From Naegleria gruberi (taxonomy: Eukaryota): a stretch of 64,000 bases of DNA. The notes beneath the pieces were generated by a model. The model worked only from the letters and a program-made list of their open reading frames with translations, had not been told where the DNA came from and ran no database searches. Position numbers and translations under genes: made by a program. Each line of letters begins with the position of its first letter. Within the stretch, counting starts at the first letter, position 1. Positions 37,910 to 41,734 of this stretch are shown piece by piece. The stretch lies in the NCBI GenBank assembly GCA_000004985.1, contig GG738845.1; one strand, 5' to 3'.

Positions 37910-40900
37910 ATGGGTAGAAAGCAAAAGCAGCAAGCTGGTAATTTTGTTTTTTTAATGTCGTCTAGTTGCTCTACCACATTGATAGTAATACTAATTCTTA
38001 CTTCATGTTTTATTATAGGAAATGTTGAGGGATGGAGACCTTTGGCTAGATTTTTACCTATCGGAGGTGATCAAGTCGATGACTTTGGCAACAGAAATGG
38101 ACAATATGCCACACGAAAATTAATTTATTCTTCTAGTAGGATGATTTTGGATGTTTATCCTTCCTCTAATACTTCACAATGTTATGAACAAATAATAGAA
38201 CCGTCCGATATATTACAGATGGATGAAAAAAGTTTGATTTCTCAACAATTTCATATCTTGCAAAGACCTTTTGAAAATGGAGATTTCAACGAACAAATGT
38301 ACAGAACAAAACAAATTGTTAATAGATATAATGTGACAAACCAATTATATATTTTGAAATATGCTAAAACTCAATTACCACAACCATTTAAAATCATACA
38401 AATCCCTAATACCGATGAAAAAATAATGTGCAGAAGAGATGGATATTTAACATCTTTATTATTCGATAATCATCAATCTACCATTTTATACAGTACTGGA
38501 TTTGTAAATCTTTTGGATTGCGTATACGTGGAGGAAAATGGTGTTGATACTATTATTGTTGTTGGTATTCAAAATATTGAAGGAGGAGCTGCCACTGCAA
38601 CCATTATGAAAATTGATTGGAGGAACAGTGCGTCAAGATCAACAACTTTATTTACTCTTCACACATTCGATACAACTTATTTTGCCAGTTTTATTGGAAA
38701 AATAATGTTAACAAAAACTCAATCTATGGTTATTCTTGTTGGATCAACTACCGAAGATATATTAAGGCTTTACCATGTTACCTATAGTTTTGTTTTTTAT
38801 GTTGGAACCATTATTGATCTTCAACAATACTTGCCTCGTACCTATAAGCCTCCTCTACTTTCAAACCAATTGGAATTACCATGTCAAATATTTCAAAATA
38901 ATACAATCACTCTCTATACAGTAGTAATGGAGGAGTATAGATCAATAGCTATTTTAGAAATTAAAGGCGAAGATAAGGGCTCATTCAGTGTTTCAAGAGT
39001 TTTACCCATCTTGGATATTCCTCGAAATGAGAGCTCGATTTCGAACATTTTCCTTCTAAATAATAATGCCAATCTCTTAGCCGTCTCATATGCAAACAGT
39101 ACCAGATATGTGTCACATATTTACGCAGATACTTCTAGCAATAATATGTTAAAATATGAAACAAGAGCATTTGGTATGAAAGATATAGCAAATATAATTA
39201 ATCTAAAACAAGTACACTTTTGCAATGTATTTGATACTATTTTTTTAATGGAAATAAGAGAAAGATCCATTCAAACATTTACTATCACTACAAAGAATCT
39301 CTACCCAGAACTTGTGAATGATATCAAACGATTCGAAAGTGATTGGAGACCTGATAAGATTGATGGCAAAAAAATTCAGGTCTTGGATTTGGTATTCGAT
39401 AGTGATAATTCTACGTACATCAGTTCAAATAGCAGCTCAGTAGCTGATATTAGATATGAGATTGACAATGCTGACATTGGCATCAAAGCATCAGTAATTC
39501 ACTTATTGCGTATTGATTTTGATGTGAAAAGTTTTACAATCAGAGCTATCAATTCACTTTCTATTGTATACTACAATTTACCTTCCAGTGTCACCAAGGA
39601 TCTCTCTTCTTTCTTTCCCTACTCTAACAATACCATAGTTTTTACAATTAATACAGTCAATAACACAGTTGAATATACTGAACTCTTTGAGTTTGATACA
39701 TTCGCATGGATTCAAAATGTAAGAAAAGAATTTAATGATATTAGCACAGACGACACAATGTACATTTTCGACGATCATCTCTATTTAACCAACTCTACAA
39801 CAGGTGCACTCGTTACAAACTTGGAAAATTACAAGATTCAATATATTACATTTCCAAACCTTACTCAAATAGATCCTTTGGATAAAACCGTCAAAATCAG
39901 TACGGTTTTGCATAAGAACATGTCTGAATATCTTGAAACAGTTCCAAAACCTGTTTTTCCACATGAGCAATACATGTTTTTTGCGACCTCAAGAGGTTAC
40001 ATTTACCAAATGTCAATGGAGGGACTAAATTCACAAATAATAACTGAAAATACTATTTTTGTTGGAAACAGCTCGTGGATACCTATGTCAGGCCTATTTT
40101 TCAACCTCCATCTCTACCTTACTTTCTATCCTGGCCATATTCTCGACATTGAATACAAGGAAATATTTTTAAATGGTAAATACCAACTTTATCCTTACAA
40201 GAAGGAATTTTACGAGTTGGCCTTTCTTAATGATATATCAATGGGAAAGAAGTCTACCATGTGGACAGCTCAGCTTGATTGCTATGCTGAGTATACTTAT
40301 TTCACAGGTGATAAGGAGGCAATTTACAAGTTAGAAATGAGAAATGTTCCACTCTCACTGTACGATATTGAATCTGTGAATATTAATAACATTGCAGATA
40401 TGAAAGCATCTGATAATAGTGGTATGCTCTATTTAATAGACTATAACGGTAACATTTTGATAAGAGACATCTCCTTGTATCCTGATGTGAGATTCTATCT
40501 TGTCATTGCAGTAATTTCTCTTTTGGGTATTACTTTACTGGTTGTTAGTATTGTGTGTATTATTCCTGTAATAATGAGATACAGAAGGAGAAAACTCATA
40601 TTTGAGAAGAGAAAGACCTTTAGAGAACTTGTTAAAAACAAGACAACTAATACTAAGTTCATTCTAGAAAGAAGACTCTATGTTGTGGATCCTTATATCT
40701 TATTTGTAAAGAAGAAATATTTTGCTCCCGACATTATCACTCACAGAAGTGTGGGTCCTCATGGTATTATGTTTGAAGCAACTATTCATAACTCGCCAGT
40801 CATGCTCAAAAAGATAACAACCAGTCTCAAAGTGTACAGACAAGATTTGGAAGAGGAAGCAATGAAGTTGGTATCTATACGTCACAAAAATGTACAGAAA

Positions 40901-41734
40901 TATGTTGGATTATCAGTGGATGATCAAAACAACAAGTATATTGTATATGAAAAACTTCCAGATTTTGAAGGATCCCTTAGAGATTACATTGATTATGGCA
41001 TACTCAAACACCAAACAATTTCAGAAGAGAAAATTTCTACTTACGAAAAGTTCTCAATATCATTCCAAGAAAAACTTGTCTTGCTAAGAGATACTATTAA
41101 TGGACTTCAATACCTACACAAAAAGGGAATAACAATGTGGGGCAACTTGAAGCCATCCAATATTCTCATTCATTTTGTTGAGCCCGAAGAAACCACCAAT
41201 ACCATTCAAGAGCATTTGGACAAGTCCTATCTCACTTCCAGTCAAGCCAATTTTATTTCTGGTAGAAATGTAGCAAAAATAACTGATTATGCTTTCCTTC
41301 ACTATTGTAAAGGTGTAATCTATAAGCCAGAAGATTTAATTTATACAAGCCCTGAGGCCCTTGAAAATGAAACATCTAAATCAGAAGCGTCTGTAGATAT
41401 ATATAGTTTCGCTCTTGTAATGTTTGCTCTTATATTTATGATATCTCCATGTGAGGATGTTCCATCAATTAATACCAGCAAGCCATCCATACCATTCGAT
41501 AGTAACAATGACGAGGCAGTATGGGAATGGTTCTCAAACTCATACAGTAACGATGACTATTTAGGAATGCTAAATTACAACATTTTAAATCATGATAATA
41601 CCAAAGTCAAACAGACTACGATTAAGAATATTAAGAAAATAGTTTCCATGATTGAGAAGATGTGGTCGAGTGATCCTTCATCACGCCCATCAATTCGTGA
41701 AGTTATTGAATTGTTCAAAGAAGTTATTGTTTAA
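37910..41734 (+). CDS. Receptor-like transmembrane protein kinase, predicted catalytically inactive (pseudokinase)
   Basis: Signal peptide/TM at the N-terminus. Extracellular region of about 850 aa with many NxS/T sites. Single TM (FYLVIAVISLLGITLLVVSIVCIIPVIM), then RRRK stop-transfer. C-terminal kinase fold has VMLKK, alphaC Glu, SPE and DIYSFA, but the catalytic loop reads MWGNLKPSN (HRD to WGN, catalytic Asp to Asn) and DFG reads DYA. Confidence 0.7.
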   Translation: MGRKQKQQAGNFVFLMSSSCSTTLIVILILTSCFIIGNVEGWRPLARFLPIGGDQVDDFGNRNGQYATRKLIYSSSRMILDVYPSSNTSQCYEQIIEPSDILQMDEKSLISQQFHILQRPFENGDFNEQMYRTKQIVNRYNVTNQLYILKYAKTQLPQPFKIIQIPNTDEKIMCRRDGYLTSLLFDNHQSTILYSTGFVNLLDCVYVEENGVDTIIVVGIQNIEGGAATATIMKIDWRNSASRSTTLFTLHTFDTTYFASFIGKIMLTKTQSMVILVGSTTEDILRLYHVTYSFVFYVGTIIDLQQYLPRTYKPPLLSNQLELPCQIFQNNTITLYTVVMEEYRSIAILEIKGEDKGSFSVSRVLPILDIPRNESSISNIFLLNNNANLLAVSYANSTRYVSHIYADTSSNNMLKYETRAFGMKDIANIINLKQVHFCNVFDTIFLMEIRERSIQTFTITTKNLYPELVNDIKRFESDWRPDKIDGKKIQVLDLVFDSDNSTYISSNSSSVADIRYEIDNADIGIKASVIHLLRIDFDVKSFTIRAINSLSIVYYNLPSSVTKDLSSFFPYSNNTIVFTINTVNNTVEYTELFEFDTFAWIQNVRKEFNDISTDDTMYIFDDHLYLTNSTTGALVTNLENYKIQYITFPNLTQIDPLDKTVKISTVLHKNMSEYLETVPKPVFPHEQYMFFATSRGYIYQMSMEGLNSQIITENTIFVGNSSWIPMSGLFFNLHLYLTFYPGHILDIEYKEIFLNGKYQLYPYKKEFYELAFLNDISMGKKSTMWTAQLDCYAEYTYFTGDKEAIYKLEMRNVPLSLYDIESVNINNIADMKASDNSGMLYLIDYNGNILIRDISLYPDVRFYLVIAVISLLGITLLVVSIVCIIPVIMRYRRRKLIFEKRKTFRELVKNKTTNTKFILERRLYVVDPYILFVKKKYFAPDIITHRSVGPHGIMFEATIHNSPVMLKKITTSLKVYRQDLEEEAMKLVSIRHKNVQKYVGLSVDDQNNKYIVYEKLPDFEGSLRDYIDYGILKHQTISEEKISTYEKFSISFQEKLVLLRDTINGLQYLHKKGITMWGNLKPSNILIHFVEPEETTNTIQEHLDKSYLTSSQANFISGRNVAKITDYAFLHYCKGVIYKPEDLIYTSPEALENETSKSEASVDIYSFALVMFALIFMISPCEDVPSINTSKPSIPFDSNNDEAVWEWFSNSYSNDDYLGMLNYNILNHDNTKVKQTTIKNIKKIVSMIEKMWSSDPSSRPSIREVIELFKEVIV

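Follow-up and report, generated by a model that had tools for sequence, protein, structure and literature searches.

In a 64,000-nucleotide stretch of the Naegleria gruberi genome (GenBank assembly GCA_000004985.1, contig GG738845.1), here called the window, we analyzed a nuclear gene at positions 37910 to 41734 on the plus strand that encodes a predicted membrane protein of 1,274 amino acids (aa). We consider it probable, with moderate confidence, that the product is a single-copy, lineage-restricted, type-I receptor-like pseudokinase that has the substitution pattern of HER3 and the JAK JH2 domains and signals noncatalytically. A sequence-only reading of the window had predicted a receptor-like transmembrane (TM) pseudokinase from the same open reading frame (ORF), and much of what follows bears on that prediction. 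Full orthologs were available from N. lovaniensis and N. fowleri (FDP41_002165, 1,329 aa), and a fourth ortholog was found on a Joint Genome Institute (JGI) metagenome contig (L003). The fourth sequence ends at ...RSMHG, so that the position of the catalytic base is not covered by it.

The cytoplasmic part of the protein is a pseudokinase domain resembling the tyrosine kinase-like (TKL) group (residues 946 to 1274; 40745..41731, +), which ends at the stop codon without a tail. It matched both kinase profiles that the sequence-only reading had put forward as a check, in each case above the cutoff: PF07714 (PK_Tyr_Ser-Thr; E = 8.7e-14, 51.9 bits, cutoff 23.1) and PF00069 (Pkinase; E = 1.7e-13, 51.0 bits, cutoff 31.7). 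These matches span residues 958 to 1267 and start from profile position 24-25, just past the Gly-rich loop. We mapped the motifs from HMMER alignments to solved structures, together with a MAFFT alignment with canonical kinases (including a plant-like TKL kinase, P0004, and the IRE1 homolog encoded in the window). By this mapping, the domain belongs to the eukaryotic protein kinase (ePK) superfamily fold, with seven core landmarks that are at canonical positions and are conserved in the orthologs. They are the β3 Lys K967 in VMLKK (40808..40810, +), which aligns with the VAVK Lys of P0004 and is invariant in all four orthologs; the αC Glu E983; N1084 in the catalytic loop; the metal-binding Asp D1126; E1149 of the APE-equivalent; the αF Asp D1163; and the subdomain XI Arg R1259.

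Against this conserved background, the residues that make a kinase catalytic are altered. The catalytic loop reads WGNLKPSN (residues 1077 to 1084; 41138..41161, +) and was aligned by HMMER with HKDLKPEN of RIPK1 and by MAFFT with HMDLKPSN and HRDLKPAN. The equivalent of the catalytic base Asp166 is Asn1079 (codon 41144-41146), the Arg of HRD is Gly, and the His is Trp, while K1081 and N1084 (the Asn171 equivalent) are kept. The Gly-rich loop is degenerate (GPHGI--MF, residues 949 to 955; 40754..40774, +) and identical in the four orthologs; compared with the canonical GSGGFANV, it has His at the second Gly (G2) and lacks two residues of the GxGxxG motif. Asp166 is the catalytic base, and Gly52 is critical for ATP affinity (PMC4718504). 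Under the bioinformatic definition, a pseudokinase is missing at least one of the β3 Lys, the HRD Asp, and the DFG Asp (PMC4718504), and because the HRD Asp is replaced by Asn1079, the protein qualifies as a pseudokinase by sequence. The (W/H)GNLKPSN loop is of the Ser/Thr type (LKPxN), not of the HRDLAARN or HRDLRAAN type, so the protein is not a receptor tyrosine kinase in the metazoan sense.

The sequence-only reading had called the retained β3 Lys, αC Glu, SPE, and subdomain IX; the WGNLKPSN loop with Asn for the base Asp; and the degenerate Gly-rich loop. It had concluded from the motifs that the domain is a pseudokinase, and the alignments agree with it on each of these points, with the qualification that the Trp is specific to N. 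gruberi. Its treatment of DFG stood in part. The equivalent motif is indeed DYA (residues 1126 to 1128; 41285..41293, +), but this was overweighted as evidence of inactivity because the metal-binding Asp is retained; the change is not inactivating in itself, and the Ala is private to N. gruberi. Downstream, the APE-equivalent SPE (residues 1147 to 1149; 41348..41356, +) closes an activation segment of normal length. Two insertions absent from canonical kinases complete the domain. One, of ∼33 aa, lies between β7 and β8 (FVEPEE...GRNV; 41174..41272, +) and is partly conserved among orthologs. The other, of ∼30 to 45 aa, precedes αH in the C-lobe (41471..41614, +), carries invariant W..WF, NDDYLG, and NIL.HD motifs, and is a candidate lineage-specific interaction surface.

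The loss of the catalytic base is shared across the genus. N. lovaniensis and N. fowleri both read HGNLKPSN and DYG, and Asn occupies the catalytic-base position in all three species in which that position can be read, encoded by AAC, AAT, and AAC with synonymous variation. Only the Trp for His and the Ala for Gly in DYA are private to N. gruberi. Judging from these orthologs, the Asp-to-Asn and Arg-to-Gly changes and the degraded Gly loop are ancestral and shared, predating the split between N. gruberi and N. fowleri/N. lovaniensis. The canonical HRDLKPAN of the IRE1 homolog in the same window shows the substitution to be specific to this gene. Routine use of Asn by Naegleria kinases, which the sequence-only reading had raised as a reason to abandon its prediction, is contradicted by this homolog and by a PARP-linked kinase beside the N. 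lovaniensis ortholog, which reads HCDIKPEN.

The kinase-like domain is also maintained by selection. We estimated the ratio of nonsynonymous to synonymous substitution rates (dN/dS) between N. lovaniensis and N. fowleri from coding sequences threaded on the protein alignment (85% aa identity; dS, 0.6 to 0.9). Values for the kinase-like domain ranged from 0.087 (NG86) to 0.13 (YN00) at a dS of 0.7 to 0.9, compared with 0.11 for the ectodomain, and the kinase-like domain is more similar between N. gruberi and N. fowleri (52.5% identity) than the ectodomain is (44%). Given a dN/dS of ∼0.1 and an identity higher than that of the ectodomain, the pseudokinase domain is, by these comparative measures, a selected functional module under purifying selection as strong as that on the ectodomain.

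The gene itself is a single uninterrupted, ATG-initiated ORF of 1,274 codons plus a stop, exactly as the sequence-only reading had delimited it, in compact DNA of 31 to 36% GC that is dense with long ORFs. An open frame of 1,274 codons cannot arise by chance in DNA so AT-rich (33% GC). Its product is collinear with XP_002683146 (NAEGRDRAFT_45081, annotated as “predicted protein”) and 100% identical to it over 94% of its length. The sole difference is that the public model starts at Met78, and no intron or frameshift is involved. Starting at Met78 leaves out the signal peptide together with a 36-residue stretch (WRPLARFLP...) that all orthologs conserve. Because of this conservation upstream of Met78, ortholog comparison indicates that the longer 1,274-aa ORF is the better gene model, and we describe the locus (37910..41734, +) as a complete, intronless receptor-like pseudokinase gene, NAEGRDRAFT_45081 with a corrected, longer N terminus. 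The orthologs carry one GT..AG intron of 68 to 74 nucleotides in the kinase N-lobe, after ...EEAKQLA, which N. gruberi lacks (∼40870). It falls in the same place in N. lovaniensis (L001:10870-10937), N. fowleri (L002:9103-9176), and the metagenomic ortholog (L003 ∼4577-4632), and since it lies ∼90 residues upstream of the catalytic loop, it cannot affect the HRD motif.

Public models of the other orthologs also needed correction. In N. lovaniensis C9374_005200 (1,653 aa), the receptor is fused to a small ORF and to a pseudouridine-synthase gene that lies upstream (L001:6001-11822); the receptor ORF proper has its own Met, at L001:7789, and its own signal peptide. The 979-aa N. fowleri model CAG4719661.1 has a spurious C terminus in place of the kinase domain. 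We considered whether N. fowleri had lost the domain and rejected this, as the 1,329-aa model and the genomic DNA both contain it. Judged against the ORFs and their alignments, each of the three Naegleria species has a faulty public model of this gene, with a different fault in each; all are correctable.

The topology predicted by the sequence-only reading, a type-I membrane protein with a large ectodomain, one TM helix, and an intracellular kinase fold, agrees with the hydropathy profile, with the onset of conservation at W42, and with the basic residues that follow the membrane. Hydropathy revealed an N-terminal hydrophobic core (residues 12 to 40) and a single strong TM peak at residues ∼862 to 889; the only other hydrophobic stretch (∼1160 to 1180) falls within the kinase C-lobe. 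The signal peptide region (residues 1 to 41; 37910..38032, +) has a basic n-region followed by this core, with cleavage predicted before W42. It is weakly conserved (17 to 29% identity), and conservation among orthologs sets in sharply at W42 (WRPLARFLP). In the metagenomic ortholog, a classical 19-aa signal peptide ends just before the same residues (VHA|WRPLARF). With a signal peptide, one TM helix, a positive-inside segment, and 10 conserved sequons and 6 invariant Cys residues all N-terminal to the membrane, the sequence gives good support to a type-I single-pass topology and a glycosylated ectodomain.

Conservation is highest around the membrane. The TM helix (residues 862 to 889, FYLVIAVISLLGITLLVVSIVCIIPVIM; 40493..40576, +) has a hydropathy peak of 3.0 and is identical between N. 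gruberi and N. fowleri at 23 of its 28 residues, compared with a background of 46.6% (P = 1.2e-4). It is followed directly by RYRRRK, consistent with the positive-inside rule, and the juxtamembrane segment (residues 890 to 945; 40577..40744, +) opens with an almost invariant basic start, RYRRRKLIFEKRKTFREL. The most conserved 28-aa window of the whole protein (residues 880 to 907, 93% identity between N. gruberi and N. fowleri) comprises the C-terminal half of the TM helix and the basic juxtamembrane stretch. Within the ectodomain, the best-conserved block is membrane proximal (residues 790 to 821, DCYAEYTYFTGD..IYKLEMR, 89% identity between the same two species). These two blocks are the protein-wide maxima of conservation, and neither is in the active site. 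The dN/dS of the TM helix between N. lovaniensis and N. fowleri was 0.03 (NG86) or 0.21 (YN00), an unstable estimate from 29 codons.

The ectodomain (residues 42 to 861, 820 aa; 38033..40492, +) is a genuine sequence orphan, in line with the statement of the sequence-only reading that it belongs to no recognizable family. A profile built from the three species recovered only the orthologous group from 1.84 billion protein representatives, and at E ≤ 10, there was no match to Pfam and none to the PDB. Recurring “LY..D..G.I” strings (residues 600 to 860) led us to suspect propeller-like blades, which were rejected by self-comparison: profile-profile comparison of 90-aa segments detected no internal repeats (all probabilities, <2%). 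The sequence-only reading had also called the ectodomain N-glycosylated. Its 13 N-x-S/T sequons are not a significant enrichment over composition shuffles (9.6 ± 2.9), and we dropped their number as evidence, using conservation instead. Ten of the 13 are kept in three species at ∼45% identity, which makes glycosylation plausible.

No sibling of this receptor was found. A profile search of the 1.84e9 representatives yielded no ectodomain paralog, and kinase-domain searches, which used a word prefilter and E values scaled to 5.8e9 sequences, yielded no close paralog, active or otherwise. Paralogs that retain HRD and DFG, which the sequence-only reading had suggested looking for, were thus absent from the results of the paralog searches. 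The kinase searches returned the plant-like TKL protein P0004, a metagenomic protein reading HKN and DYS (P0005), and a Panicum tandem kinase (P0009) and no Naegleria protein. Scans of metagenome contigs for further orthologs found none. By these searches, the receptor is known so far from Naegleria and from a single close relative in a metagenome.

P0005 (L004:3001-4455, JGI metagenome 3300073653) is a cytosolic kinase-like protein from a compact protist genome and was among only two kinases outside the orthologous group at E ≤ 1e-3 (26% identity). It reads HKNLKPSN, DYS, and VMR, having the same Asp-to-Asn change and having also lost the β3 Lys; it has no TM helix, ectodomain, or either of the two inserts.

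Among solved structures, the best PDB matches were RIPK1 (7.8e-11, 44.6 bits), B-Raf (∼1e-6), IRAK4, and JAK2, with scores of 30 to 45 bits for any TKL structure. This suggests a TKL affinity for the kinase-like domain; JAK2, of the tyrosine kinase (TK) group, stands beside the TKL kinases among the best matches. RIPK1, B-Raf, and IRAK4 align over the region from αC to the catalytic loop, the APE-to-αF region, and subdomain XI, but the similarity is low and fragmentary, confined to these three short stretches. Unlike the Naegleria protein, they are active cytosolic kinases with HxD, DFG or DLG, and intact Gly loops and without a TM helix or ectodomain.

The substitution pattern is most like that of HER3 and JAK JH2, and the overall logic most like that of plant receptor-like pseudokinases, by analogy with these characterized systems. 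In HER3 (Asn815) and JAK JH2, the base Asp is Asn while Lys72, Asn171, and Asp184 are kept, and ATP is bound with one cation; activity is at most a trace in HER3 and JAK2 JH2, and HER3 signals allosterically (PMC4718504). The Naegleria domain shows the identical Asp166-to-Asn change with the β3 Lys, Asn171, and DFG Asp retained and, as in HER3, sits in a single-pass type-I receptor. HER3 has a tyrosine kinase loop (HRNLAARN type) and lacks the αC Glu, whereas the Naegleria protein has a Ser/Thr-type NLKPSN loop and keeps E983. Both HER3 and JAK JH2 have a usable Gly-rich loop, whereas the Naegleria loop has His at G2 and the two-residue deletion. HER3 has active paralogs (EGFR and HER2) and a long phosphorylatable tail, and the Naegleria protein has no detectable paralog and no tail. 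The two ectodomains are unrelated.

In Arabidopsis, ∼20% of receptor-like kinases (RLKs) are predicted pseudokinases, among which BIR2 regulates BAK1, a kinase with an unrelated ectodomain (PMC4718504). Like the RLK/Pelle pseudokinases BIR2 and DRIK1, the Naegleria protein is single pass with a TKL-like fold of the Ser/Thr type and has lost catalytic residues, and a chain of the leucine-rich repeat (LRR) RLK family (5uv4) was among the best PDB sequence matches. It differs in having an ectodomain without LRR, LysM, lectin, or any other recognizable module; in a generic TKL affinity only (30 to 45 bits against any TKL structure); and in its two large lineage-specific inserts. Entamoeba TM kinases have ectodomains of Cys-rich repeats, unlike the Naegleria ectodomain, with only 6 Cys residues in 820 aa. 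Single-pass TM Ser, Thr, and Tyr kinases are common in protists, and their nonkinase domains are usually lineage specific (PMC10463195); the text of that survey makes no mention of Naegleria or Heterolobosea. The architecture is shared with the TM kinases of Entamoeba, oomycetes, and amoebozoans, but sequence and profile searches detected no sequence relationship to them.

In the mechanism that we propose, a cleavable signal peptide would direct the 820-aa disulfide-containing ectodomain to the extracytoplasmic side, where an event such as ligand or particle binding could be relayed through the conserved TM/juxtamembrane unit and alter the oligomeric state or conformation of the pseudokinase domain. 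That domain would act as a conformational switch or docking module, not as a phosphotransferase, much as in the signaling scaffold or allosteric receptor that the sequence-only reading predicted. The two conserved lineage-specific inserts would probably be the means by which it recruits or sequesters an unrelated cytosolic protein or regulates one allosterically. Since no paralog was found, the partner is unlikely to be an active sibling receptor, and a HER3-HER2 type of arrangement is not supported. Closer analogs would be a homo-oligomeric scaffold or one of the plant receptor-like pseudokinases whose target is an unrelated kinase. Several points weigh against this proposal. The residue pattern that is shared with HER3 and JAK JH2 (Asp166 to Asn, with Lys72, Asn171, and Asp184 kept) accompanies weak activity in HER3 and JAK2 JH2, so that signaling is only probably noncatalytic. 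AlphaFold2 returned a predicted local distance difference test (pLDDT) score of 30 for the ectodomain and 36 for the kinase-like domain from alignments that are too shallow, and gave no support for a role of the inserts. The kinase searches missed the query's own database entry, so that distant paralogs could have been overlooked. Finally, cell-surface localization, glycosylation, ligand binding, and a partner are inferences.

The protein could instead be a low-activity or atypical receptor Ser/Thr kinase that binds ATP with one cation through K967, N1084, and D1126 and transfers phosphate slowly, for example, in trans-autophosphorylation when clustered by ligand. This reading is possible but unlikely. 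Consistent with it, the domain retains, without variation among the orthologs, the β3 Lys, the αC Glu, the Lys and Asn of the catalytic loop, and the DFG Asp; the loop is otherwise canonical (NLKPSN); and strong purifying selection would be compatible with retained chemistry. HER3 (Asn815) binds ATP at ∼1 μM and undergoes autophosphorylation on vesicles, and JAK2 JH2, too, has low kinase activity (PMC4718504). However, the Gly loop is worse than that of JAK JH2, in which Gly50 and Gly52 are kept (PMC4718504), given the His at G2 and the deletion of two residues here; the HRD Arg is lost as well; and the two conservation peaks, one in the TM/juxtamembrane unit and one in the ectodomain near the membrane, lie away from the active site. 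The TM/juxtamembrane peak also bears on a quite improbable reading, in which the protein is a nonsignaling adhesion, phagocytic, or sorting glycoprotein of the surface or endomembranes and its kinase-like domain is only a stable cytoplasmic anchor, for example, to the cytoskeleton. A relay or an interface with a partner would more typically show such extreme TM and juxtamembrane conservation than a passive anchor would. A large orphan ectodomain with conserved Cys residues and sequons but no recognizable ligand-binding family would fit a glycoprotein of this kind, as would a single-copy, unexpanded gene, unlike typical sensory receptor families, and the absence of a C-terminal tail with docking sites; ILK is an earlier example of a pseudokinase that serves as a structural adaptor (PMC4718504). 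Nothing specific points to an adhesive or sorting role, however, and the reading overlaps with the noncatalytic receptor that we favor, as both are noncatalytic.

An artifact, in which HRD loss is mimicked by an error in the sequence, an overlooked intron, or pseudogene decay, is effectively refuted, and we assign it almost no likelihood. Public gene models are prone to error in each of the three species (an incorrect start, a gene fusion, and an incorrect C terminus), which lends the idea what weight it has. Yet the gene has 1,274 uninterrupted codons in AT-rich DNA, the same Asn is found in three species that were sequenced independently and whose codons for it differ synonymously, dN/dS is ∼0.1, and the sole intron of the orthologs is a canonical GT..AG intron distant from the catalytic loop. 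A corrected gene model that restores HRD or DFG, named in the sequence-only reading as an outcome that would overturn it, did not emerge; the ORF is continuous and the orthologs read HGN.

The genes around the receptor are unrelated housekeeping genes, including those for DEAH and DEAD helicases, DNAAF5, a WD40 protein, Beclin/Atg6, a NIF phosphatase, IRE1, a GCP subunit, topoisomerase I, and a myosin. As the neighbors are unrelated and the flanks are not syntenic with those in N. lovaniensis or N. fowleri, the context gives no functional clue. Immediately upstream of the receptor, an ORF at 36264-37844 (+) encodes 526 aa of low-complexity, R/D/N/E-rich sequence with no significant match in Pfam. 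It is listed with a TTG start, and translation probably begins at an internal ATG instead. Directly downstream, the ORF at 41833-43773 (+) has a C2 domain and a subthreshold GRAM match. Another ORF, at 13305-16280 (+), has a GRAM domain with weak COG4_C and PATROL1-like TPR matches. Neither of these GRAM ORFs matches the PH-domain gene that follows the receptor in N. lovaniensis and N. fowleri. Upstream of the receptor in those two species is a gene that joins a protein kinase domain (HCDIKPEN, DFD) to a PARP catalytic domain (L001:767-4186 and L002:1-2370, respectively), an unusual combination that does not occur in the N. gruberi window. The IRE1 homolog (50714-53866, −) combines Pkinase and Ribonuc_2-5A domains with a weak β-propeller match in its lumenal part. 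It carries GYGSNG, VAVK, HRDLKPAN, DMG in place of DFG, and APE and has a long low-complexity insert in its activation segment. A myosin-I-like ORF (59509-63930, −) has four Myosin_TH1 stretches and a PH_3 domain. Its motor match starts at profile position 183, and the 5′ part is in another exon or extends past the listed ORF.

Receptor pseudokinases are established as signaling devices in animals, as exemplified by HER3, ROR, and PTK7, and in plants, where they make up ∼20% of RLKs. The Discoba are one of the deepest eukaryotic branches, and to our knowledge, almost nothing is known about receptor pseudokinases in this group. In 2019, Kwon et al. reportedly described pseudokinases as widespread. 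The same is stated elsewhere (PMC4718504), and for Naegleria, 265 kinases have been described, with G protein-coupled receptors, histidine kinases, and cyclases emphasized as its sensors (PMC9928731). The kind of protein described here is already known and its existence would not surprise a specialist; the gene itself is uncharacterized, and a literature search on the gene and its locus tags found no paper. Within the Discoba, it shows a receptor-pseudokinase architecture that is stably noncanonical across the genus Naegleria and maintained by selection. Its distinctive points are the orphan ectodomain, the absence of an active sibling from our searches, and the unusually conserved TM/juxtamembrane unit. 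It is therefore a clean candidate for asking what a receptor pseudokinase does without an active paralog as its partner. With an ortholog in the brain-eating amoeba N. fowleri (FDP41_002165), it is also a potential genus-specific surface marker. More tentatively, and with considerable doubt on our part, these proteins may constitute an independently evolved heterolobosean receptor system, with a new ectodomain fold, a pseudokinase without an active sibling, a family that has been noncatalytic since its origin, and output through the TM/juxtamembrane unit and inserts to an unrelated partner, convergent with HER3 and BIR2-type receptors. If so, the pathogen N. fowleri would have in this receptor a surface molecule specific to its lineage.

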